This document shows positions 1,491 through 20,712 of a stretch of 24,000 nt of DNA, piece after piece (the stretch's first letter is position 1; each line of letters opens with the position of its first letter). The notes below the pieces were generated by a model that saw only the letters and a list, made by a program, of their open reading frames with translations, did no database searches and was not told the origin of the DNA. The translations under genes and the position numbers were made by a program. The stretch comes from Turicibacter sp. TJ11 (lineage in GTDB: Bacteria; Bacillota_I; Bacilli_A; MOL361; Turicibacteraceae): the NCBI RefSeq assembly GCF_021497505.1, contig NZ_CP069349.1:2173780-2197779 (forward strand), written 5' to 3'.

Positions 1491-2831
1491 ATGAGTATGA
1501 GATTAGATCGTAAATTATTTTGGAGCTATATTGTTATTATTTTAATCGCGATTTCAACATCGTTTACTTTATTTACGGTAGCCTCAAATCAGTTTTTAAC
1601 GTATCGCTTAGTTGATACGATGAAAAAAGAGTTAAGCTTAATTGAAGAAAACTTTGGTTTTTATTCGGATAATTCACAAATCGCCCCGTTTATTACTCAA
1701 AATATCATGAGTTTAGTAGAATCTAATTTGATTATTATTGTAGATGGGGATACGGTCTTTACTCAATCTAATACGAGTAAAGAGTTAACAGAACACGCGA
1801 TGGATCTTTCTTATTTGGATAAGCATTATATTAGAGTCTCTACTCGAGTGATCATTGGTTCTCGAACGTTTGATATTATGTTACTTAGTGAAAAAGGGTC
1901 AATTAGTGAGCTAAATCAGTTAAATCTAAGTATTTTATTTATTACTTCGTTAGTAAGTATGTTGATTGCAGCCTTTTTTGGAGTTTACGTTCAAAATAAT
2001 ATTTCTCGTCCGATTCATTTATTAAGAAATAAAGTTCGAGCGTTTCAAGAAAGTTTAGAAGTACCAGAGGTCACGATTTATACGGGAGATGAAATTCAAG
2101 AGCTTGATGAAGATATTGTTCGAATGGCGAAGTCCATTGTTAATAACGATCGTAAACGAAAAGCCTTTTTTGAAAATACTTCGCATGAGTTAAAAACTCC
2201 ACTGATGAACATTCGGGGATACGCAGAAGGTTTAAAGGATGGGATTTTCTCGATTGATGAAGCAGCAGAAGTTATTTCTCAAGAAAGTGAGTCACTTCGT
2301 ACCTTAGTTGAATCTATTTTATATTTATCTAAACTAGAAGATGCCACTCACGATCGTTATCAGCTTCAATTAGTTGATTTAAATGAATTTTTACAAGGAT
2401 TTTATGATAAAATGGCTGGAATTATCGCGGATAAAAATCTTCAATTCAACTTGAATCTGGATAAAACGGTCCAAGTTCAAATGGATGATGATAAAATGAT
2501 TCGAGCATTATCAAATATTATTACGAATGCGATTCGTTATGCTAAAGAAAAGATTTCAATTCAAACGGTTGTGGATCAATCCATGGTAGAGATTCGTTTG
2601 TTTAATGATGGACCTCAAATTTCTGAAGCTGATTTGCCATATTTATTCGATCGTTTTTATAAAGGCGATAAAGGTCAATCAGGTCTTGGATTATCGATTG
2701 TTCAAAGTATTATTAACGCACACAATGGGACAGTCGAGGCATTAAATGTTGAAGAAGGGGTATGTATGAGTATTAAGTTACCGTATGTGGCATCTTCTAG
2801 TAAATGGCGATTAAATGAAAAGAAAAGCTAA
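1491..2831 (+). CDS. sensor histidine kinase (two TM segments, HAMP-like linker, HisKA, HATPase_c)
   Basis: H-box SHELKTPL, N-box ITNAIRYA, DRFYKGD, and G-box GLGLSIV. Hydrophobic segments lie near residues 10-30 and 145-165. The start is 8 nt after the regulator stop, which suggests an operon. Confidence 0.9.
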   Translation: MSMRLDRKLFWSYIVIILIAISTSFTLFTVASNQFLTYRLVDTMKKELSLIEENFGFYSDNSQIAPFITQNIMSLVESNLIIIVDGDTVFTQSNTSKELTEHAMDLSYLDKHYIRVSTRVIIGSRTFDIMLLSEKGSISELNQLNLSILFITSLVSMLIAAFFGVYVQNNISRPIHLLRNKVRAFQESLEVPEVTIYTGDEIQELDEDIVRMAKSIVNNDRKRKAFFENTSHELKTPLMNIRGYAEGLKDGIFSIDEAAEVISQESESLRTLVESILYLSKLEDATHDRYQLQLVDLNEFLQGFYDKMAGIIADKNLQFNLNLDKTVQVQMDDDKMIRALSNIITNAIRYAKEKISIQTVVDQSMVEIRLFNDGPQISEADLPYLFDRFYKGDKGQSGLGLSIVQSIINAHNGTVEALNVEEGVCMSIKLPYVASSSKWRLNEKKS

Positions 2832-2857
2832 ATCAGTTGACTGATTTAGCTTTTTTG
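2826..2857 (+). terminator. intrinsic terminator after the kinase gene
   Basis: Stem AGCTAAATCAG / CTGATTTAGCT followed by TTTTTT. Confidence 0.8.
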
Positions 2858-3017
2858 TTTGAAAGGAACAATGATTTAGTCACAAAATTGAAGTTTAAAA
2901 TTATCTCTTTTTATTTAGACAGAGACTGCCAAAAAATTTAAATAAAGATTTGTTAGAATGGAAAAGTTAAGTTAAAATAAAAGGGTAAGTAAAAATGGAT
3001 AAGGTGGGAGACTAGAC

Positions 3018-4313
3018 ATGATTGAACGTTATTCGCGCCCTGAGATGGCAGCTATTTGGACAGAACAAAACAAGTTTGAAGCGTATTTAAAAGTTGAGAT
3101 TTTAGCTTGTGAAGCTTGGGCTCATTTAGGACATATTCCAATGGAAGATGTTGAAAAGTTATGGAAAAATGCTTCATTCGATTTAAATCGTATTTACGAA
3201 ATTGAGCAAGAAACACGTCATGACGTGGTTGCTTTTACACGTGCTGTCAGTGAAACTTGTGGTGACGAGAAGAAGTGGGTTCATTATGGATTAACATCGA
3301 CAGACGTTGTTGATACAGCAAATGGATATTTATTAAAACAGGCGAATGATATTTTACGCGCGGATATTGAACGTTTTATTAATGTATTAGGTGAGAAGGC
3401 TAAAAAGTATAAACATACAGTACAAATGGGGCGTACACATGGTGTTCATGCTGAAATCACAACATTTGGATTAAAACTAGCTTTATGGTATGAAGAAATG
3501 AAACGTAATCAAGCACGTTTTGAAGAAGCAGCTCGTGCCGTAGAGTGTGGAAAAATTTCAGGTGCAGTTGGAACGCATGCAAACATTCCTTTCTTTGTTC
3601 AAGATTATACTTGTGAGAAATTAGGAATCGAGTCTGCTAAAATTTCAACTCAAACGTTACAACGTGATCGTCATGCTGCATATATGTCAGCGATTGCTTT
3701 AATTGGAGCATCAATTGAAAAAATGGGAGTTGAAGTGCGCCACTTACAACGTACTGAGGTTCGTGAAGCAGAAGAGTTCTTCCGTAAAGGACAAAAAGGA
3801 TCTTCAGCCATGCCACATAAACGTAATCCAATCGGATCTGAAAATATGGCAGGATGTGCTCGTGTGTTAAGAGGATATATGGTTACAGCATATGAAAATA
3901 TTGCACTTTGGCATGAACGTGATATTTCACACTCATCAGCAGAACGTATCATTATGCCAGATGCAACCATTTTATTAGATTATATGTTAAATCGTTTTAC
4001 TAATTTAATTGATAACCTAACAGTTTACGAAGAAAATATGTTAGAAAATATTAATAAAACACATGGGGTTATTTTCTCTCAACGTGTCATGTTAAAATTA
4101 ATTGAAAAAGGTTTTGTTCGTGAACAAGCTTACGATTTAGTTCAACCTAAGGCGATGCAAGCATGGGAAAATCGTCAATCTTTCCGTTCATTATTAGAGT
4201 CAGATGAAACAGTTATGAATCATTTAACGATGGAAGATTTAGATGATTGCTTTGATCACACATACCACTTAAAATCAGTGGATGGAATTTTTGAACGTTT
4301 AGGTTTAGTTTAA
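3018..4313 (+). CDS. purB: adenylosuccinate lyase
   Basis: 431-aa full-length ORF. It begins with the characteristic [11 protein letters not shown]-terminus and carries the fumarate-lyase signature [22 protein letters not shown] upstream. Confidence 0.95.
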
Positions 4314-4382
4314 TTAAAGTGAACTCATTCATTCTAAATCAGAAAAGTTTCGATTAACTAGGTGATAATAAATGATGAAGTT

Positions 4383-4421
4383 GTGGATAACTATAAGACA
4401 TAGTTATCCACATTTTTATTT
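4383..4421 (+). terminator. intrinsic terminator after purB
   Basis: Stem GTGGATAACTA / TAGTTATCCAC followed by ATTTTTATTTT. Confidence 0.7.
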
Positions 4422-4470
4422 TCGAGTCTTGATAAGAGGTTGAGTGATCCTTTATATAGTGTTGGAATAT

Positions 4471-4496
4471 AAAAAAAGAGCCTTAGGCTCTTTTTT
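4471..4496. terminator. bidirectional terminator next to the rubrerythrin stop codon
   Basis: AAAAAAAGAGCC-TTA-GGCTCTTTTTT: a perfect stem flanked by an A-run and a T-run. Confidence 0.8.
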
Positions 4497-5037
4497 AGTA
4501 GTTTTCTGAATGGATTTCAAAGTGAGCTTGATCGTAAGAACATACTGGGCACACTTTTGGTGCTTTTTTACCGTAGTGAATGTGTCCACATTCTTGGCAA
4601 ACCCATGCTACTTCTTCTTCACGTTCAAATACTTTTCCTTCTTCAATATTTTTTAATAATTGTAAATAACGTGCTTCATGTTCTTTTTCGATTTTTCCAA
4701 CCATTTCAAATAAAGCAGCGATACGATTGAATCCTTCTTCACGAGCTTGTTGTGCGAATGTTGCATACATATCTGTCCACTCACCGTTTTCACCAGCTGC
4801 AGCATCACGTAAGTTTGTCATTGTATCAGCAACTTCACCTTCATGTAAGAACTTGAACCATAATTTAGCGTGTTCCATTTCATTACGTGCTGTTTCTAAG
4901 AAGATGTTAGCAATTTGTTCATATCCTTCTTCTTTAGCTTTTGCCGCATAATAAGTATATTTGTTGCGTGCCATTGACTCCCCAGCAAAAGCATGCATTA
5001 AATTTGCTTCAGTTTTAGTACCTTTTAAGTTACTCAT
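4495..5037 (-). CDS. rbr: rubrerythrin
   Basis: Four-helix diiron ferritin-like part with E..E..H motifs (GESMARNKY, NEMEHAKL, GENGEWTDMY, IEKEHEARY). C-terminal rubredoxin-like CQECGxxxxxxxxPxVCPVC. RBS GGAGAGAG upstream. Confidence 0.9.
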   Translation of the reverse strand: MSNLKGTKTEANLMHAFAGESMARNKYTYYAAKAKEEGYEQIANIFLETARNEMEHAKLWFKFLHEGEVADTMTNLRDAAAGENGEWTDMYATFAQQAREEGFNRIAALFEMVGKIEKEHEARYLQLLKNIEEGKVFEREEEVAWVCQECGHIHYGKKAPKVCPVCSYDQAHFEIHSENY

Positions 5038-5088
5038 TTAAACTCTCTCCTTCATGACTATCTATTAAATTTAATCTCTGATAATAGC

Positions 5089-5103
5089 TTATAATATTTA
5101 TAG
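5089..5103. promoter_or_regulatory. candidate PerR/Fur-type box in the rubrerythrin promoter region
   Basis: TTATAATATTTATAG matches 13 of 15 positions of the 7-1-7 box TTATAATNATTATAA as I recall it. It lies about 50-65 nt upstream of the rbr ATG. Confidence 0.3.
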
Positions 5104-5207
5104 TTGAAAATCAATAACAATTACTACTTTTCTTTAAAAACATTCATTCAATGATATTTATTATCATTTAAAAGATACTAAAACCTAATTTACTATCTTT
5201 TAAAATT

Positions 5208-5585
5208 TTACGAATATCCAATAACTTTCCAGTCTGTTTGATATGTATCATTTTCATATTCATAAGTAAAACTTGATGGATTCCCCATCTCATTAATAAA
5301 GTTATCCATAAATAGCTTAAGATAGTGATAGCTATAGTCGCATTCTTCTTCATACCATTTCGTATGAACCAATCCAATCAGTGTACAGTCCACGGTATCA
5401 ATCGTGACAAACATAGATTTTTCTGTTGATACCATTTTGTCTAGTAACATTTCAATTTGTGTCGTCGAGATCCCTTCTTGAGTGTTAACTTTTAAGAAAA
5501 TACCGATCGGACCTTCATAAGGACATTTATGATCATAATCATAATTCTCTTGATTTGATTTAAATAAATTTGTTAAAAATCCCAT
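5208..5585 (-). CDS. hypothetical cytoplasmic protein, 125 aa
   Basis: Strong RBS GAAGGAGA 7 nt upstream of the ATG. No signal peptide or TM segment, and no motif I recognise. Confidence 0.6.
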   Translation of the reverse strand: MGFLTNLFKSNQENYDYDHKCPYEGPIGIFLKVNTQEGISTTQIEMLLDKMVSTEKSMFVTIDTVDCTLIGLVHTKWYEEECDYSYHYLKLFMDNFINEMGNPSSFTYEYENDTYQTDWKVIGYS

Positions 5586-6663: not shown

Positions 6664-7896
6664 ATGAAAGATCAGGCAGTTTTTGAGGCGTTACAATTAG
6701 AATTAAGACGTCAACGTGAAAATGTAGAGTTAATTGCATCAGAAAACTATGTGTCAGAAGAAGTCATGAGGGTTCAAGGATCTATTTTAACGAATAAATA
6801 TGCAGAAGGATACCCAGCGAAACGTTATTATGGTGGTTGTGAATTTGTTGATACGATTGAAGAGATTGCAAGAGATCGTGCAAAACAATTATTTGGTGCT
6901 AAATTTGCGAATGTTCAACCTCATTCTGGATCTCAAGCTAATATGGGAGCTTATCGCGCCTTATTAAATCCAGGTGATAAAGTCTTAGGGATGAATTTAA
7001 GTCATGGAGGTCATTTAACACATGGTCATCCTCTAAACTTTTCGGGTAAAGATTATGAATTTTATGAATATGGAGTCAGTCAAGAAACTGAGATGATTGA
7101 TTATGAGGCTATTTTTGAAATCGCAAATGAAGTGAAGCCAGCTTTAATTGTAGCGGGAGCATCTGCTTATCCACGTGCGATTGATTTTAAAAAATTTAGA
7201 GAGATTGCGGATAAAGTGGGTGCTTACTTGATGGTTGATATGGCCCATATTGCTGGCCTTGTTGCAGCAGGGTTACATCAAAATCCAGTCGATTATGCTC
7301 ATATTGTGACAACAACGACACATAAGACATTACGTGGTCCTCGCGGTGGAATGATTTTAACTAATGATGAAGAGATTGCAACGAAGTTAGATAAAGTGAT
7401 TTTCCCAGGGATTCAAGGTGGACCATTAATGCATGTCATTGGAGCCAAAGCAGTTGCTTTTGGAGAAGCGTTAACGCCTGAATTTGTGGAGTATCAAAAG
7501 CAAGTGATTAAAAATGCACAAGTGTTAGCTGACGAGTTAACAAAACAAGGACTGCGAATTGTATCAGGTGGGACAGATAATCATTTAATGCTAGTAGATG
7601 TAAAATCAACCTTTGGATTAACAGGTAAAGTAGCAGAAGCTGTGTTAGATGAAGTTGCAATTACATGTAATAAAAATACGATTCCATTTGATGCAGAAAG
7701 ACCGTTTATTACAAGTGGAATTCGATTAGGAACTCCGGCTGTGACAACCCGAGGATTTAAAGAAAAAGAAATGGTTGAATTAGCGACTTATATTGCAGAA
7801 GCATTAAAATCTCACGAAGATAAAGATAAATTAGCTAACATCCGAGAAGCTGTTTTATCTCTAACTTCAAGATTCCCCCTATATGAAAATGAATAA
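6664..7896 (+). CDS. glyA: serine hydroxymethyltransferase
   Basis: Conserved LIASENY, the PLP site [14 protein letters not shown], and full length. I place the start at ATG 6664 (RBS AGGAG 6651-6655) rather than at the ORF-track TTG at 6646. Confidence 0.95.
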
Positions 7897-11818: not shown

Positions 11819-13120
11819 GTGGCGTTAGATACAAATTTATCATTACGGCAATCAGTGATTTATCAGGTTTATAACCGAAATCATAATCATACTGGAACGT
11901 TTAGAGAACTAATTTATGATTTAAAGCGAATTAAAGAGCTAGGGGTAGACATTGTTTATTTATTGCCGATTCATCCAATTGGAAAGAAAGATAAAAAAGG
12001 TAGCTTAGGGTGCCCTTATTCTATACAAGATTATCGTGAAGTAAATCCTGAGTATGGAACGCTTGAAGATTTTAAAGACTTAATTAAAGCGACCCATGAA
12101 CATGGGATGAAATTAATGATTGATGTCGTTTATAACCATACTTCACGCGATTCCGTTTTATTAAAAACACATCCTGAGTGGTTTTATAAAAATGATGAAG
12201 GTGAGTTTGCGAATCGAATAGGTGATTGGTCTGATGTCACAGATTTAGACTATACGAAAGATGTTGCCTTATGGGATGAACTGATCGATATCTTAAAGTA
12301 TTGGGCAGCGCTTGGAGTGGATGGTTACCGTTGTGATGTCGCTTCTTTTATTCCAATCAAGTTTTGGATAAAGGCTCGAAGTGAGGTTGCTAAGATTAAT
12401 CCTGATTTTATTTGGTTAGCAGAGAGTGTCGATGGTGGATTTATTAAAGGCGTACGCTCATTAGGATATGAGGTTTGTAGCGACAGTGAGTTATATCAAG
12501 CATTTGATATTTGTTATGACTATGATGTTTATTGTTACTTTAAAGATTATCTATTAGGAAAATCATCTTTAGCTGAGTATGTGAAGCGAGTTCAACTACA
12601 AGAGTACATTTATCCAGGTAATTATGTAAAATTACGTTGTTTAGAAAATCATGATCAAGCACGTATTGCTTCGCTCGTTCAATCTAAAGAGCAATTAAAC
12701 ATGTGGACAGCCTTTAATTATTTACAAAAAGGTGCAACCATGATTTATGCAGGTCAAGAAGCGAGTTGTCAACATCAGCCAAGTCTATTTGATGTGGATA
12801 AAGTTGATTGGTCTCATTATAATGAAGCGGGAATGGCTGATTTAATGAAACAATTGGCTATCATCAAGAAAGATCCTGTCATGAGTGAGGGGTATTACGA
12901 AATTGAATTAGGTACGGTTGGTGATACTGTTTACTTAAGTTATGAAAGTTCTGTAAAACAACGACTTGCGATTTTTAATTTTAGTTTAAAAGCAGGAGAT
13001 CTTTTCATGGACGTAGCTGATGGTACGTATAAAAATTTACTCACTCAACAAGATGTTATCGTTAAAAATAAAACAGTCACTCTATCAAACGAACCGATTA
13101 TTTTTGATATTAATAAATAA
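11819..13120 (+). CDS. GH13 alpha-amylase-family glycosidase, cytoplasmic
   Basis: GH13 conserved regions DVVYNHT, GYRCDVA, WLAES and LENHD. No signal peptide. GTG start with RBS GGGGGGA upstream. Confidence 0.85.
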   Translation: MALDTNLSLRQSVIYQVYNRNHNHTGTFRELIYDLKRIKELGVDIVYLLPIHPIGKKDKKGSLGCPYSIQDYREVNPEYGTLEDFKDLIKATHEHGMKLMIDVVYNHTSRDSVLLKTHPEWFYKNDEGEFANRIGDWSDVTDLDYTKDVALWDELIDILKYWAALGVDGYRCDVASFIPIKFWIKARSEVAKINPDFIWLAESVDGGFIKGVRSLGYEVCSDSELYQAFDICYDYDVYCYFKDYLLGKSSLAEYVKRVQLQEYIYPGNYVKLRCLENHDQARIASLVQSKEQLNMWTAFNYLQKGATMIYAGQEASCQHQPSLFDVDKVDWSHYNEAGMADLMKQLAIIKKDPVMSEGYYEIELGTVGDTVYLSYESSVKQRLAIFNFSLKAGDLFMDVADGTYKNLLTQQDVIVKNKTVTLSNEPIIFDINK

Positions 13121-13146
13121 AATCTACTCTAGGAGTAGATTTTTTA
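13119..13146 (+). terminator. intrinsic terminator after the GH13 gene
   Basis: AAATCTACT-CTAGG-AGTAGATTTTTT. Confidence 0.8.
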
Positions 13147-13246
13147 TTTTTCTGTTAGATTTATAAAATTCGTTTGAATATTGTAAAACTGACAAATAGT
13201 TTTTATTAATTTAGAGTATCCTAATAGAAAAGATGAGTTAGGTGAA

Positions 13247-13786
13247 ATGATGAAACGTTTATTTATTGGTATAGGTTTTACAGATGAACTTAAAGATTAT
13301 TTTAAAGAACATCAACAAATCGTTGAAAAATATTGTGAAACTGCTAGATATACAGCATACGATAATTTTCATCTAACACTTAAATTTCTTGGGATGATGA
13401 ATGATTCAGATATTGTAAAAGTAATTGATGTGATGAAATCGATTAAGTTTGAAAAAATTTATCTGGTGTTTGATCATCTTGGTTATTTCAAAAAGAAGAA
13501 TCGATATATTGTGTATGTAGGTCCGGAGTCTAACGAAAAATTAACTCATTTAGCGAAAAATCTACAACTTGGCTTAGTTCAAGCCAATCTAGTGAAAGAT
13601 GAGGATTTTGTTTATCGCCCTCATGTCACCTTATGTAGAAATGCAAAATTACTCGCTTCACCTGACGAGTTATCACAAAAATTGAAAATCAAAAAGGAAG
13701 AAACGATTAATCATATGATTTTATATGAAAGTTTGAGTATTAATGGAAAATTAACGTATCAGCCATTATATATTTTGGAGGTATAA
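13247..13786 (+). CDS. thpR: 2H-superfamily RNA 2',3'-cyclic phosphodiesterase (ThpR/LigT-like)
   Basis: Both HxT/S motifs are present at the expected spacing (FHLTLKF and PHVTLCR). The size of 179 aa is typical. The start could be 13247 or 13250. Confidence 0.8.
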   Translation: MMKRLFIGIGFTDELKDYFKEHQQIVEKYCETARYTAYDNFHLTLKFLGMMNDSDIVKVIDVMKSIKFEKIYLVFDHLGYFKKKNRYIVYVGPESNEKLTHLAKNLQLGLVQANLVKDEDFVYRPHVTLCRNAKLLASPDELSQKLKIKKEETINHMILYESLSINGKLTYQPLYILEV

Positions 13787-13788
13787 AG

Positions 13789-14502
13789 ATGACAGAACAA
13801 GCAGGTTATTTAGAATTCATTGAGTCATTTAATCATATACATAAATATCTAAAGAAATATACCAATTCAGATGATAATGTCTCATTTAGCGATTTGCTTT
13901 ATAAAGCTAAGAAACATCCAATGATTCATCTTTATTTAGATGAGCTGCATTTATTCCGAAAATTACGTAATATTATTGTTCATCAAACGGATGATTTTGA
14001 ACAATTGATTGCTTATCCAAGCGATGAAGTCGTTGAGCGAATGAAATTTATTGAACAACAGCTAGTGGATCCTTCAACAGTGATTGTTTTTAAAACGGAA
14101 GTGATTAAATTTAATGCTGCTGATGCGATTGCGGATGTTTTAAAAGTTTCAGGAGAAAAAGAAATATTAAAACTTCCGATTTATGAAAATGATAAATTTG
14201 TGGGACTCGTTACTTCAAGAGGAATCGCAAAATGGTTACAAAAACATATTGAAAACAACACCATCGAGCTTTCAGGAAGTGTGAAAGATCTATTAGAATA
14301 TGAAAAAAAATCTCAGTATGAGTTTATCGCCCAATCTATGACTGTTTATGGAGCTTGGAATTTATTTCAATCCTCACCAAATAAATTAGATGCTTTATTA
14401 TTAACAGAAAGCGGTCGTCCAGATGATCGGATTGAAGCAGTAATTACGTATGATGATGTTTTAAAATACATTTATACACATGATCAATATGTGTTTAATT
14501 AA
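13789..14502 (+). CDS. HEPN-like (RNxxxH) N-terminal region fused to a CBS-domain pair
   Basis: The ATG is 2 nt after the thpR stop, with GGAGG inside the thpR 3' end. LRNIIVH (R60..H65) sits in a helical N-terminal 90 aa. Residues ~95-235 have a CBS-pair pattern (PIYENDKFVGLVTSRGIAKWL and AVITYDDVLKYI). Confidence 0.7.
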   Translation: MTEQAGYLEFIESFNHIHKYLKKYTNSDDNVSFSDLLYKAKKHPMIHLYLDELHLFRKLRNIIVHQTDDFEQLIAYPSDEVVERMKFIEQQLVDPSTVIVFKTEVIKFNAADAIADVLKVSGEKEILKLPIYENDKFVGLVTSRGIAKWLQKHIENNTIELSGSVKDLLEYEKKSQYEFIAQSMTVYGAWNLFQSSPNKLDALLLTESGRPDDRIEAVITYDDVLKYIYTHDQYVFN

Positions 14503-14851: not shown

Positions 14852-15094
14852 GACCATCACGCCTGGAGGGCACCACAATAAACGAAAATAAACGGTGCAT
14901 TGAATGTTATTTTTAGAATCGTCCACAATACGTTGTACAATCAAGGACGATGTTTCTTGGATCGAATAGACCGATATATAGACTGTCCTGACAACTTCTC
15001 TTTGAACCACATTTTGTCCCTGAGGACGCATAGTAGAATAACAATCATGAAGTTGATATTGTACGTCAATTATATTCAAAGGAGAATTTAAACG
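14852..15094 (+). ncRNA. candidate bridge/seek guide RNA region in the 5' non-coding arm of the IS110-family element
   Basis: The arm is non-coding and 243 nt long. Visible hairpins: GCACC...GGTGC, CGTCC[ACAA-TACG-TTGT]...GGACG, and GTCC-CTGA-GGAC. There are internal copies of the junction motifs (TATATAGAC and ATAGACC at 14966-14983). The assignment rests on family knowledge and not on a model fit. Confidence 0.3.
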
Positions 15095-16321
15095 ATGGAT
15101 GTTGTTTACCAAACGTGTTGTGGGATTGATGTGCACAAGATGAAATGGGTGGCTTGTTTGTGTAAAGGCCATAAGCAAGAAATCAAGGAGTTTAGTGCCA
15201 AAACAAAAGATATCAAAGCGATGGTTGATTGGCTTGAAGGAAACAAATGTGAAATGGTTGCGATGGAGTCGACTTCTGTTTATTGGAAACCTCTTGTCAA
15301 TATTTTTGAAATGCGCGGATTAAAGTATATGGTTGTTAATGCCAAAGACTTTAAAGCTGTTCCTGGCCGAAAGACAGATGTATTGGATAGTGCTTGGTTA
15401 GCTGATTTACTCCGTCACGGTTTACTTAAATCAAGTTTTATCCCAAGTCGTGAACAACGCGAATTAAGAGAAGCGACACGTTATCGGAAGGCAATAACTG
15501 AAGAAAGAGCCCGCGCCCTTAACAGGCTTCAAAAAATGTTAGAAGGTGCCAATATTAAAATCAGTTCGATTCTTTCAACGATAACAGGTAAAACAACCAT
15601 GAATCTATTAGATTATGTTTTAAACAATGATGAAATGATGGATGAAAAAACAGCTGAAACCTTAATAATCAGTCGGATATCAGCTTCTGTTAAAGAGGTG
15701 ACAGAGGCGATGGAAGGAATAATAACCCCTTTTCAAAAAACGATGATGAAACAAGTTCTCACACATCTTCGCGAATGATCCGAAAGAATTGAAGAGATGG
15801 ACATCATCATTGATACGTATATGGCAGAGTATTGGGAAGCCATTAAGAAACTTGAACAAATTCCTGGCATCGGAAAGAAGAGTGCAGAAATTATTTTAGC
15901 TGAAATTGGATTGGATATGAATCAGTTTCCCAGTGCAGGACATCTCGCTTCATGGGCAGGTGTAGCTCCTGGAAATAATGAAAGTGCGGGCAAAAGAAAA
16001 AGCGGGAAAACCCGCAAAGGAAACAAGATACTGACATCGACACTCGCTCAAGTTGCGAAATCAGCCTCTAAAAATAAAAATAGCTTTTTTCATGCCCAAT
16101 ATCAACGAATCGCTGTCAAAAGAGGAAAAAATAGAGCCACCTTAGCGGTCGCTCATTCTATTTTAATAGCCATCTATCATATGTTGAAAGATGGCCAGGA
16201 ATTTATTGATTTAGGATCCGACTACTACCATCAATTTAATACCGAGAAAAAAATTAACTCATACCTGAAAAAGTTAGCTGCTTTAGGATATAGAGTTGAT
16301 GAACATTCAACGGTAAAGTGA
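15095..16321 (+). pseudogene. IS110-family recombinase interrupted by a single in-frame TGA (15776-15778)
   Basis: The ORFs 15095-15778 and 15797-16321 are in the same frame, and 15779-15796 is also open. The N-terminal part has CCGIDVHK and AMESTSVYW. The C-terminal part has IPGIGKKSAEIILAEIG and the SGKTRKGNK tail. The combined length of ~408 aa is typical of the family. Confidence 0.85.
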
Positions 16322-16590
16322 GTCGGATAATTTATTATCGTAAAAAATAAGGAATTTAAAACAGCTAAAGACAAACAAATATTGTCGAAGGTCGCCTTTC
16401 TTTTGACGGTATTTTATGATAAGATTCGAGGCCTACAAGGGAGGTCTTTTCAAAGCTGCCTTCGTGGAGGGAGTTTGTATTTATTTTCATAGTAGAAGAT
16501 AAAATTTTAATTTGGAGATTATTTTTTTATTATGCATTTTTTTGAAGGATGATAAATATTATGACTTATATATAGAAACAGATAAGTTTT

Positions 16591-17623
16591 TCACATTTTT
16601 TCGCAGAGTCTTTGGATCACTTCCGAAGGTCTTTCATTGATATGTTGAATAAATCCTTGAACAGCGTTTCTAATCTCATTTATATTTTTATAAAAGACGT
16701 TATGAATCACAGATTGTTTTAACCATTTCCATAATCCTTCAATTAAGTTTAATTCTGGACTATATGGTGGTAAAAAGATTAACCTTAATCTATTTTTGTG
16801 TTCGTTTAAAAAAGGTTGGATGAGTTTAGCGTGATGAATTCTTGCGTTATCTAAAATCATGACAATCTTTCCCGTTGGATATTGTTTCAGTACTTTTTTG
16901 AGGAATTCTAAAAAGATATCTGCTGTATAACGTTCTTCCTCCTGGACATAAACATGACCTGTCTCATAGTTAAGGATTCCTATTAATTTGACACTTTTAT
17001 TATTTCCGTAAGTAGGAATAATCCGTTGTTTTCCTTTAGGAAACCAATTGTTGACTAATGATTGATAATCTCTGATAGAACTTTCATCTTGAAACAATAA
17101 ATGATCAATCTCTCCACGAATCAAAATTTTTTAATTGTTCAAATTCCTGTTTAAATCCCTCTTGTTTTTCTTGACTAGCTCTCGCTAATGAGTAAGTCGG
17201 GCGTGTGTAGCTAAAACCTAAGCGTAACAACATGTCACGCATTCCCCCTTTAGAGAATGAAATTCCAAAGGTTTGCTTCACCCAGATGCATAATAGCTTA
17301 CAATCCCAAGTCATGTACGGTTCAATCCCAACATCAGCGGGCGTTTTATGGATGAGAGTATGGATTAACTCAGCTTCTTGCTCAGGTGAAAGTTTCTTCG
17401 GGCAGCCTGATTTTGGGCGTGGGTTTAATCCCTCAAGTCCATATTTTTTATAATTTCTAACATGTGTTCCGATGGTCTGAGCAGTAAAGGGAACTATCCT
17501 AGCGATTTCTACATTTTTATATCCTTGTAAGTGTAAATAGATGACTTGATAACGAGTATAAAGTTGTTTCGATGATGTTTCACGCATCGCTGTTTCAATT
17601 AATTTTAATTCTGTCTGATTCAT
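16591..17623 (-). pseudogene. IS630-family DDE transposase split into two frames at an A6T4 tract
   Basis: orfA (17105-17623) holds HTH domains. orfB (16591-17124) holds the DDE domain (QDESS, ILDNARIHHA, PPYSPELNLIE). The two overlap by 20 nt. orfB lies in the +1 frame relative to orfA at the minus-strand sequence TTAAAAAATTTTG. Confidence 0.85.
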
Positions 17624-17644
17624 AGTTGCCCCAATTTCTATCCT

Positions 17645-17684
17645 AAAATGTATGTTTAATATCTACTATTTTAACATACATTTT
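17645..17684 (-). other. 12-bp perfect inverted repeat in the IS630 transposase leader
   Basis: AAAATGTATGTT-N16-AACATACATTTT, located between the right IR and the transposase ATG. Confidence 0.5.
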
Positions 17685-18055
17685 AACGAATTTTGACCAC
17701 AAGTATTTGAATTAAAAAACTATGAAATACATTTCTGTTTCTATATAATGATAATTTTTAAGAAATCATCGGAAGATATAAGTTTGAGAGGAATGAGTCT
17801 AGAAAAAATGACGATGACTTAATAATTAAAAAGATTAGTCTGTTTAAACAGCCTCAAAGAAACAATCCTATTTGCTTATCAAAAAGAGGAGATTGATGAG
17901 ATATTTTATCGGCTTAAGTAGAAGAACTCGGTAAAAACACTTTATAGGAAATTAATTCGTGGTAATCTCACAATATATCCTATGTATTTTTAAAGGGCTA
18001 ATTAGTATAATTAGCTTTATGTGAAAGCGTTTAACTGAGGTAGGGGGAAATCTAA

Positions 18056-20287
18056 GTGGAGGAAATTGTATCAAGAGAACAATTAATTGATTACTTCATA
18101 GAATCATGTGATCTTTTACAAAATTATAAAAGCATTAAACAAGTATTATATGAGGAGCTTGAAAAAGAAGAATCAAATGTTGAAGAACTTTTAACGGATT
18201 ATCGTGAAAATCAGAAGTTTGACTATTTAGTACCTGTATTAATTTTAACGGCTCGCTATTATTTCGAACATGAATTTTATAGTTTAGCTGCGATTTATTT
18301 AGTGGAATGTCATTGTGCCTTAGAGTACTTAGATGAGAATCATTTATTAAAAGGCTATGTTTTAGGGGAATTAGGTTATGTTTATGAATGCATGGGAGAG
18401 TTGCAACAAGCCAATCATTACTATACAACAGCACTTTCTTTTAGTCGAGAGAAGCAAATTCCTTTACTGGCCATCTATAGCTTAGATCATTTAGTTCATA
18501 TGATGTTAATTTTATGTCAGCGAAAAGGTTTTAAGAAAATTAAACAATTTGTTATGGACTATCGGTATGAATCAACCTTTAATCAGTGTAAAGGTAAAAT
18601 TGATTTATTGAATGCTTATATTATAGGAGACTATAAATCTGTCATTAAGTTATGCGAAGAATCTGTTGATTTTAAAAATAAAGAAGATAAACTAGCCATG
18701 TATAATCACTCAATGTATCAATTAGGGAAAGCTAAAGAAATTAAATGGAATTTGAATTTAGACGAGTCGAATTTACACGATCAAACCGGCATCTATTCGT
18801 TAATTAATCTTTTAACCTACCACTTAATTGAAGATAATGACGAGCAATTATCTAGCTATCTTAAGGAACTCTTTCAGTCGTTAGCTGAGAAAAATCTTCA
18901 TCATTTGATGAGATTTGGTTATCATTTTTTATGTCAGGACATACGAATTCGTTCAAGTTTAGAATGGGCGAGTGATTTTGAAGAATTATTAAGTCAAACC
19001 TATGATTTAATACACTCTCAAGAACAACATTTAAAGCAACGAACTGAAAGTATTTATCACAGTTACCGAGAGTATTATCAACGTTTAAATAAACTAAAAG
19101 CTCAACAAAAATATAAATTAGTTCACTTTAATCAATTGTCGGATTATTACCAACAGGAGTATACTCCAAAAACAGTGTTAAGCTACTTAAAGTTAGATCA
19201 CTGTTTCTATGGTGAGTTTAATAATCAGATTTTAAATCAGGTCATTGAAACTATTAATGAATGGATGGGAGAAAGCATTACTTTCTCAGTTGAAAACGAA
19301 GGAATTTGGTTTTACTTTAATGCTTGTCACAAAGAAGTAAAACTGAAACAAAAATTAAATCACTTAGTTGAACTATGGTATGAAAAGATTAAACAAACAT
19401 ATTATGTTTCTTTTTTATTGCCACGATATACGACTACTTCATTTGAAGAAACAGCGATGCGCGTTAAAAGTGATTTTTGCAGTCTAATCTTAAAGTCTAA
19501 TGTTCGTTTACCTTATGACGTGAGTTTTTGTCAGGAACTTTCTTGGAGCCATAATATTTCATTGAAAATTCGTCAATTACTAGATGCTACTTATCAAACT
19601 GGAGAGTTTAACTTGGCTTATACTCCTCTTTATTATCGAGAAGGAACACAGTTATTTGGCGTGGAGTGTCATCATCAACTAGATGACCATGTCATTTTGA
19701 ATCGTTTATCTTCAGAAGAACGAGCAGAAGCATCACATATTTTGACAATGGAAAAAGAGTTTTATCAATTTGAAGCTGGATGTCGATATGTTCATGAAAA
19801 AAATCAAAGCACCGATGAGCCTTTATCATTATTTATTAAACTGTCTCGAGAAACCGTGTTGAATAAGCTCTTACCTTCAAGAATTTTAAATTGTTTACAA
19901 AAGTATGAAATTCAACCGAATCAATTGATTATTAGTATAAATGAAGATGTTTTATTTGAACAAAATACACTCATTCAAAAGGGAATTAAACGATTGCGAG
20001 AATTAGAAATTAATATTGCCTTAGATGAGTATGGAGCAGGTGCTTTAACGGGATCTATTCGTAATTTAAATATTGATTATTTACGAATTAGCTCTTGTCT
20101 CATTCAATACTTAAAAAATTCAAATAATTGCCTTCATATGATGAAGTCTTTATTAAGTGTTTGCTCAAGTAAGGACGTAAAGATTTGTTGCTCAGAAATT
20201 GAAAATGAATCAAGTCTACATTTAATTAGTGATTTTGGAATTGATGTCGTAAGTGGCAGCTATTATCAAAGAAATTTAGTTGTTTAA
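18056..20287 (+). CDS. TPR-like N-terminal region fused to degenerate GGDEF-like and degenerate EAL-like domains
   Basis: GTG start with RBS TAGGGGGA. TPR-like repeat LGELGYVYECMGELQQANHYYTTALSF. GGDEF positions read LKLDHCFYGEFNN and SVENEGIWFYF. EAL positions read FGVECHHQL (expected EAL), SINED (ExTE), LDEYGAG (DDFGTG), LRIS (KxD), CSEIE (AEGVE) and SGSYY (QGY). Confidence 0.75.
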   Translation: MEEIVSREQLIDYFIESCDLLQNYKSIKQVLYEELEKEESNVEELLTDYRENQKFDYLVPVLILTARYYFEHEFYSLAAIYLVECHCALEYLDENHLLKGYVLGELGYVYECMGELQQANHYYTTALSFSREKQIPLLAIYSLDHLVHMMLILCQRKGFKKIKQFVMDYRYESTFNQCKGKIDLLNAYIIGDYKSVIKLCEESVDFKNKEDKLAMYNHSMYQLGKAKEIKWNLNLDESNLHDQTGIYSLINLLTYHLIEDNDEQLSSYLKELFQSLAEKNLHHLMRFGYHFLCQDIRIRSSLEWASDFEELLSQTYDLIHSQEQHLKQRTESIYHSYREYYQRLNKLKAQQKYKLVHFNQLSDYYQQEYTPKTVLSYLKLDHCFYGEFNNQILNQVIETINEWMGESITFSVENEGIWFYFNACHKEVKLKQKLNHLVELWYEKIKQTYYVSFLLPRYTTTSFEETAMRVKSDFCSLILKSNVRLPYDVSFCQELSWSHNISLKIRQLLDATYQTGEFNLAYTPLYYREGTQLFGVECHHQLDDHVILNRLSSEERAEASHILTMEKEFYQFEAGCRYVHEKNQSTDEPLSLFIKLSRETVLNKLLPSRILNCLQKYEIQPNQLIISINEDVLFEQNTLIQKGIKRLRELEINIALDEYGAGALTGSIRNLNIDYLRISSCLIQYLKNSNNCLHMMKSLLSVCSSKDVKICCSEIENESSLHLISDFGIDVVSGSYYQRNLVV

Positions 20288-20382
20288 TTAGATGAAATAG
20301 GTCATAATAGAGATTATAAGCAACTAGGCAGTTAGTTCATGCGTATACAATGATAATCTTTAGTTTGAAGAGGAGACATAAG

Positions 20383-20712
20383 ATGAAGCAAGATATGAAT
20401 ATGGATTTGGGGCTTGAGTCATTTTTAGAGCCTGACTCTGATTTTATAGAAGAACTATGTGATCACTTAGAAGCAGAAGGGATTCACTTAACGAATGAGT
20501 TATTAGTTCAGATTCTTTCAAAATATGAAGATCATAAATTTAATTTCTTTAAAGAGTTAATTGAGCAATTAGTCGGCCCAGATCAAATGGGCTTATCAAC
20601 TGACGGTAATCCAGCAGTGATTCAAGTGGTGATGGATGGAAAACGTCATAAAAAACAAAAAAATAAAGAGGAAGATCCATTAATTGATATGGATTCAACT
20701 CTGTTATCGTAA
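20383..20712 (+). CDS. hypothetical small acidic protein (109 aa) with a basic patch near the C-terminus
   Basis: RBS GAGGAG at 20370-20375, 7 nt before ATG 20383, which I prefer to the ORF-track start at 20350. No signal peptide. No terminator separates it from the upstream gene. Confidence 0.6.
   Translation: MKQDMNMDLGLESFLEPDSDFIEELCDHLEAEGIHLTNELLVQILSKYEDHKFNFFKELIEQLVGPDQMGLSTDGNPAVIQVVMDGKRHKKQKNKEEDPLIDMDSTLLS

Follow-up and report, generated by a model that had tools for sequence, protein, structure and literature searches.

Fusions of HEPN ribonuclease domains with CBS domains, some of them with an added HD domain, were predicted in 2013 by Anantharaman et al., who suggested a role in which RNA stability is regulated through nucleotide sensing (PMC3710099). 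The named examples (alr3009 and gi 118580987; cyanobacteria and Pelobacter) also carry HD, and association with a 2H/LigT enzyme is mentioned nowhere in that survey (PMC3710099). A single E. coli protein combining CBS and HEPN domains, DS-11, is an anti-phage system validated by DefensePredictor (bioRxiv 2025; Science 2026, PMC13092281), whose defence is abolished by the CBS substitution Y157A and by the HEPN substitutions R330A or H335A (PMC13092281). Here we describe a related arrangement from Turicibacter sp. TJ11, in a stretch of 24,000 nucleotides (nt) of contig NZ_CP069349.1 (positions 2,173,780 to 2,197,779; hereafter the window), where thpR, encoding an RNA 2',3'-cyclic phosphodiesterase of the 2H family, is followed by a gene for a protein with a HEPN-like N-terminal domain and a CBS pair (the HEPN-CBS gene). 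An earlier note on this DNA had interpreted the two genes as a possible accessory-island module for RNA cleavage and end processing, of a composition that its author knew from no described system. The fusion is already covered by the 2013 prediction and by the validated DS-11, whereas the pairing with ThpR is undescribed in the literature searched, which yielded no paper on a HEPN-2H pairing or on a HEPN-CBS family of Bacilli. The explanation that we favour, at somewhat better than even chances, is that the HEPN-CBS protein is a ligand-gated HEPN ribonuclease (RNase) from a family that is widespread and inherited vertically, and that in Turicibacter it is expressed together with ThpR, the two not being obligatory partners.

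The HEPN-CBS gene (13789..14502, forward strand) encodes a protein of 237 amino acids (aa), and is supported by the open reading frame (ORF) call, Pfam, the family alignment and the AlphaFold2 model. The earlier note had pointed to a HEPN signature in the stretch L59-R60-N-I-I-V-H65 (nt 13963-13983 of the window), within which R60-N-I-I-V-H65 (13966..13983, forward strand) forms a putative catalytic Rx4H motif; the signature is present, and R60 and H65 proved to be conserved. R60, N61 and H65 were invariant in 23 homologues (52-98% identity, all from Turicibacter-type sources), and the same three residues were the sole invariant columns among 103 full-length representatives, taken from 50%-identity clusters and each less than 50% identical to the others, for which the mean column identity was 29%. 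A profile built on residues 1-97 recovered 511 proteins at E <= 0.001 among 1.84 billion cluster representatives. Among the matches listed, nearly all were about 225-250 aa long with the HEPN-like domain at the N-terminus, and 145/147 carried RNxxxH or a near variant at position ~58-62, in the form RN(A/I/V)xxH.

The N-terminal domain (residues 1-95; 13789..14073, forward strand), for which a helical region of about 90 aa had been anticipated, was predicted to be all-helical over about 95 aa, with helices at residues 2-24, 33-39, 44-48, 50-65 and 79-91, and with an AlphaFold2 predicted local distance difference test score of 85 for residues 1-97 and 86 for the whole protein. In this model the RNIIVH motif closes helix 50-65 and is followed by a loop (66-78) and by the last helix (79-91), matching the published position of the HEPN motif at a helix end ahead of a loop and the final helix (PMC3710099). 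Sub-threshold Pfam matches of 40 isolated N-terminal domains fell on RiboL-PSP (21/40), HepT-like (14/40), Cthe2314 (5/40), HEPN_Apea (4/40), DUF4145 (4/40) and Abi_2 (2/40). The top three PDB profile matches of the domain were to the Shewanella HepT toxin (E 0.015-0.036), over about 70 residues, with LRNaivH falling on LRNIAVH, and an hhalign comparison of the domain profile with a HepT fragment gave P 1.4e-4 and a probability of 52%. By sequence profile, no solved relative is closer than HepT of the type VII HepT-MntA system (PDB 5yep, 6m6w, 7bxo), with the LRNxxVH motif matched, and the two HepT models, PF01934 and NF047751, both stayed below their cut-offs. On the invariance of the motif, its modelled position and the HEPN/HepT profile matches, the N-terminal domain very likely belongs to the HEPN superfamily. 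Two further Pfam families, DUF6548 and DUF5452, were weak but recurrent matches of this domain, in 14/17 and 13/17 Turicibacter members respectively, and DUF6548 was also weakly matched by 14/40 of the wider-family domains; judged from these matches, both may be unrecognised HEPN-like families.

The CBS pair proposed to follow the helical region was clearly recovered, as a Bateman module spanning residues ~98-237 (14080..14499, forward strand). The first repeat (residues 103-151) scored 27.5 bits against the Pfam CBS cut-off of 24, Pfam CBS was matched by 100/103 of the family members, and the wider-family profile matched many PDB chains with CBS pairs (best E 1.3e-29). A Foldseek search with the full-length model aligned about 140 columns with Bateman modules at E ~3e-6 and probability 1.0; the matches included AMPK gamma, CBSX2-AMP and AcuB, bound to AMP, ADP, ATP or Ap4A. 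In adenosine-binding CBS domains, the ribose-binding motif is G-h-h-T/S-x-x-D/N. The second repeat carries A217-V-I-T220-Y-D-D223, the family consensus being G-I-I-T-x-x-D, with G217 conserved in 82%, T220 in 84% and D223 in 94% of the family, a pattern that by its residues fits the motif for adenosine-ribose binding. When ten longer or shorter variants were scanned, the CBS region followed the N-terminal domain in nine, the tenth (P0059) being without any Pfam match; therefore, HEPN and CBS look like a stable unit.

The HEPN-CBS family is large, uncharacterised and mostly from Bacilli. The wider-family loci come from a search for DNA that could encode LRNAIVH-x8-IAEP, made with a degenerate pattern; it samples only members with exactly this motif and spacing and leaves the Turicibacter-type LRNIIVH members outside. 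At least 120 loci were obtained, mostly from Enterococcus, Bacillaceae, Planococcaceae, Erysipelotrichaceae, Paenibacillus and Exiguobacterium, with a few from other phyla, and each of the 120 loci held one family member. Their neighbours varied by lineage (LspA, a calcineurin-like phosphoesterase, an amidase, MurB, an ABC-2 transporter, HAD and AzlC), and the enterococcal order was fhs - HEPN-CBS gene - lspA - pyrR - pyrP. In six of these loci, with examples from Chryseomicrobium and Planococcaceae, a calcineurin-like metallophosphoesterase gene lay about 35 nt downstream on the same strand (for instance at 5163-5966 of L092, and in L019); this is a different type of phosphoesterase from ThpR. 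The full-length gene was found in 2 of 72,556 plasmids, and its full-length matches in a phage collection were two unannotated records, one from Enterococcus and one of 2.2 kb from Listeria. The Enterococcus record, OR846607.1 ('Enterococcus phage Efs 1-1-1', UNVERIFIED_ORG), is probably bacterial chromosomal DNA and not phage, because it holds the enterococcal chromosomal block fhs - HEPN/CBS - lspA - pyrR - pyrP. A PADLOC scan returned no match for ThpR or the HEPN-CBS protein. By these neighbourhoods and replicons, the HEPN-CBS gene belongs to the chromosome, is inherited vertically and has no fixed partner.

In the window, thpR (13247..13786, forward strand, 179 aa) lies immediately upstream. 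ThpR hydrolyses RNA ends that carry a 2',3'-cyclic phosphate. The protein scored 99.5 bits against the NCBIfam equivalog TIGR02258 (cut-off 65.7) and exceeded the cut-offs of three Pfam 2H models (LigT_PEase, 2_5_RNA_ligase2 and AKAP7_NLS). Both 2H motifs that had been noticed in it are present, H42-L-T-L at 13370..13381 and H126-V-T-L at 13622..13633 (both forward strand). Sharing the TIGR02258 match and the two HxTx motifs with ThpR/LigT enzymes such as E. coli ThpR, the thpR product is, by its profile scores, a bona fide ThpR-type 2',3'-cyclic phosphodiesterase and itself an ordinary one, unusual only in its position ahead of the HEPN-CBS gene, which is specific to the Turicibacter lineage.

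The gene layout was found as previously described: the thpR stop codon TAA occupies 13784-13786, the HEPN-CBS ATG follows at 13789 after a gap of 2 nt, and a GGAGG Shine-Dalgarno sequence of the HEPN-CBS gene lies within the 3' end of thpR (13777..13781, forward strand), 7 nt ahead of the ATG. In a terminator scan of the region, no terminator-like site of the coding strand separated the two genes, and they therefore have the appearance of one bicistronic unit, so that thpR and the HEPN-CBS gene look co-transcribed in the TJ11 window. Terminator-like sites around the pair numbered three, against 0.5 expected in shuffles; one of them, a hairpin with an 11-bp stem and a T-run (13119..13143, forward strand), overlaps the 3' end of the upstream alpha-amylase-family gene and is the predicted 5' boundary of the transcription unit. 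A candidate sigma-70-like promoter (CTGACA-17-TAGAGT; 13189..13217, forward strand), a consensus match only, lies 30 nt upstream of thpR, in a region where promoter-like sites showed no enrichment over shuffles. Translation of the HEPN-CBS gene is probably coupled to that of thpR in the Turicibacter lineage.

HEPN RNases are metal-independent and leave 2',3'-cyclic phosphate ends, and dimerisation is common to HEPN RNases and CBS pairs. In the reading that we favour, the HEPN-CBS protein would dimerise, two Rx4H motifs would build a composite metal-independent RNase site, and an adenine-containing ligand at the CBS pair would turn this site on or off. Cleavage of RNA would leave 2',3'-cyclic phosphates, and in Turicibacter these ends could be hydrolysed by ThpR. 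A ligand-gated, metal-independent RNase is a plausible identity for the HEPN-CBS protein as far as domain content and motifs go.

Several results weigh against this reading. When the HEPN-CBS protein was shuffled, 25% of the resulting sequences contained, by chance, a motif of the form R[polar]x3-5H; the significance of RNx3H comes from its conservation across the family, its presence in a single sequence being uninformative. None of the curated HEPN models reached its threshold for the HEPN-CBS protein or for the isolated N-terminal domains. A Foldseek search of the N-terminal model against the PDB gave no significant match (all E > 1, best template modelling (TM) score 0.48), the highest, non-significant TM-scores belonging to HEPN structures, 4nqf (0.47-0.48) and HepT 7bxo_F (0.39); of the fold check that the earlier note had proposed, the motif position in the AlphaFold2 model and the HepT profile matches speak for a HEPN domain, and the structural search by itself does not reach significance. 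Three more observations concern the link to thpR. In the relatives L011/12 (56% identity), thpR is upstream but 233 nt away; in L001 and L005-7 (59-61% identity), it is gone from beside the HEPN-CBS gene; and in 8-kb stretches around the 120 loci from other genera, no 2H/ThpR-like ORF was found (0/120) with phmmer, with a hidden Markov model (HMM) of the Turicibacter ThpRs, or with the same HMM unfiltered at E <= 50.

The HEPN-CBS protein could instead be a one-gene abortive-infection effector in the manner of DS-11, in which a phage-induced adenine nucleotide at the CBS pair would unleash the HEPN RNase. DS-11 (WP_000257686.1; NF053863, 'CBS domain-containing anti-phage protein') has, like the TJ11 protein, a CBS pair and an Rx4H HEPN domain in one polypeptide, with R330/H335 in the place of R60/H65, and the two share the proposed logic of an adenine nucleotide at the CBS pair gating a dimeric HEPN RNase. 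Protection of E. coli by DS-11 needs the CBS tyrosine and the HEPN arginine and histidine (PMC13092281), and DS-11 itself came from a method aimed at systems outside defence islands (PMC13092281). Weak matches to NF053863 were also found in 42/103 of the family members, but these were confined to the CBS region (profile positions 78-188) and scored 20-26 bits where the cut-off is 260, and the TJ11 protein had no match even at E <= 10. The domain order is reversed as well: DS-11 has 365 aa with CBS before HEPN, whereas the 237 aa of the TJ11 protein place HEPN (1-95) before CBS (98-237). Because NF053863 matches the CBS region only and the order is inverted, the family is not DS-11 but an inverted-order analogue, and not an orthologue. 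No NCBIfam family was found for the HEPN-CBS protein, its weak matches there (PrdR and a pyrophosphatase) being to CBS only. DS-11 is an accessory gene of E. coli for which no ThpR neighbour is reported, whereas the HEPN-CBS family occupies conserved chromosomal positions in Bacilli, such as that between fhs and lspA in enterococci, among housekeeping neighbours; together with the near absence from plasmids and phages and the lack of a PADLOC match, this makes a DS-11-like role unlikely.

A dedicated two-component system made up of thpR and the HEPN-CBS gene, with ThpR as an obligate partner that heals the cleaved ends or degrades the activating nucleotide signal, is a still less likely explanation. 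It draws on the tight spacing and on the shared transcription unit seen in TJ11 and several relatives at 61-98% identity, with thpR directly upstream and 3 nt away in L002-4 (91% identity), L008 (77%) and L009/10 (61%). The chemistry would also suit it, since ThpR hydrolyses the ends in question. HEPN RNases are described as leaving 2',3'-cyclic phosphates (PMC3710099). Conserved adjacency within one narrow lineage is, however, what descent alone would give. In L001 and L005-7, a divergent DUF1398 gene adjoins the HEPN-CBS gene, which is kept intact with its RNx3H motif, and in L011 a DUF1398 gene stands upstream of thpR; read from this gene order, one Turicibacter subclade has lost thpR by a deletion between DUF1398 and the HEPN-CBS gene. 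The loss of thpR there, the 233-nt gap that uncouples the genes of L011, the absence of a 2H enzyme from all 120 other-genus loci and the lack of any HEPN-2H pairing in the literature search all run counter to an obligate role. The thpR pairing is, on these comparisons, local, dispensable and confined to the Turicibacter lineage, not a conserved two-gene system, and being lineage-specific and dispensable it therefore amounts to co-expression with at most an optional functional link. Of the nucleotide-gated RNase with a dedicated partner that had been proposed, the HEPN-CBS fusion is very probable, and the co-conserved partner is not borne out.

DarB and other small CBS proteins of Bacilli work through protein-protein contacts. 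The HEPN-like bundle might accordingly be a non-cutting one, in a nucleotide-sensing regulator that binds a partner protein or nucleic acid as do DarB/CbpB and CcpN, and the sub-threshold HEPN models and the non-significant fold search could be taken in that sense. The 2013 survey noted HEPN domains that are inactive and serve as binding modules (PMC3710099), but such domains are expected to be without the conserved charged and polar residues (PMC3710099), and a family whose only invariant residues are the HEPN catalytic triplet R, N and H, placed where HEPN active sites lie, makes this the most doubtful of the explanations weighed. Membership in a HepT-MntA toxin-antitoxin system was rejected for the absence of an MNT gene beside the HEPN-CBS gene (ThpR lies upstream; downstream, TJ11 has insertion sequence (IS) elements and its relatives have LUD/EAL genes), no recurring neighbour cluster in the 120 wider-family loci looking like an MNT gene either; HepT is a stand-alone domain of ~130 aa neutralised by the adjacent MNT adenylyltransferase, whereas in the HEPN-CBS protein regulation would fall to the fused CBS pair.

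The core flanks, namely the amylase gene, thpR, the HEPN-CBS gene, an EAL gene (18056-20287), a small ORF, a sigma factor gene and a gene for an HflX-type GTPase, are syntenic in relatives without IS elements, at odds with the accessory-island context claimed for the pair. Of the three-element IS nest also claimed, two elements were verified: an IS110-type transposase (15095-16321, forward strand; ORFs 15095-15778, DEDD_Tnp_IS110, and 15797-16321, Transposase_20) and an IS630-like transposase (16591-17623, reverse strand; ORFs 17105-17623, helix-turn-helix (HTH), and 16591-17124, DDE_3). The IS block (14854-17720) is absent from L002 and L008, where its flanking sequences are contiguous; from this alignment, the IS pair is a strain-specific insertion between the HEPN-CBS and EAL genes, and the mobile or defence-island origin that the IS elements suggested was rejected on the synteny in IS-free relatives. 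Both transposases are split in two ORFs, and the 20-nt overlap of the IS630-like ORFs could reflect either frameshifting or disruption. The intergenic segment 14630-14853, downstream of the HEPN-CBS gene, is 77-90% identical to two separate intergenic places in L002, 1376-1524 and 7454-7725, and by this similarity has the look of an intergenic repeat that is dispersed in Turicibacter.

An EAL protein (645-744 aa) and a small ORF (~105-120 aa) come after the HEPN-CBS gene in L001-L008; the EAL gene follows on 8/8 of the Turicibacter-type contigs that are long enough, the thpR-less subclade included, and its region in the window is 18056-20712. The EAL protein was considered as the true partner and rejected, being conserved within the Turicibacter lineage only, with no recurrence in the wider-family loci. 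In L002-L004, two additional genes interrupt the order, both of them missing from the window and from L008: one lies between the amylase gene and thpR (1723-5313) and encodes a Metallophos/5'-nucleotidase protein of 1196 aa, and the other, with a LUD_dom domain, lies between the HEPN-CBS and EAL genes (6798-7439).

An accessory-island two-gene module for RNA cleavage and end processing does not hold up, and most of the novelty claimed for it is removed; what the analysis brings forward is a broad HEPN-CBS family, experimentally untouched, that reaches well-studied pathogens. A more far-reaching version is a long shot: the HEPN-CBS protein would be a core nucleotide-gated RNase of Bacilli, Enterococcus faecalis and Listeria monocytogenes among them, coupling the turnover of RNA to an adenine-nucleotide signal such as the AMP/ATP ratio, Ap4A or c-di-AMP, and Turicibacter would have recruited for it a co-translated ThpR that removes the 2',3'-cyclic phosphates. 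If this version were true, the Turicibacter locus would provide the first case of a HEPN nuclease and its end-healing enzyme encoded in one natural operon. The thpR pairing hints at 2',3'-cyclic phosphate products, and the lineages with and without ThpR provide a natural comparison. If the prediction of a ligand-gated RNase is right, many Bacilli, including enterococci, Listeria and gut Turicibacter, have on their chromosomes an unstudied RNase whose activity is controlled by a small nucleotide; it would stand beside the anti-phage DS-11 as a second, architecturally inverted example, and would directly link nucleotide or energy signalling to RNA decay in Gram-positive bacteria.

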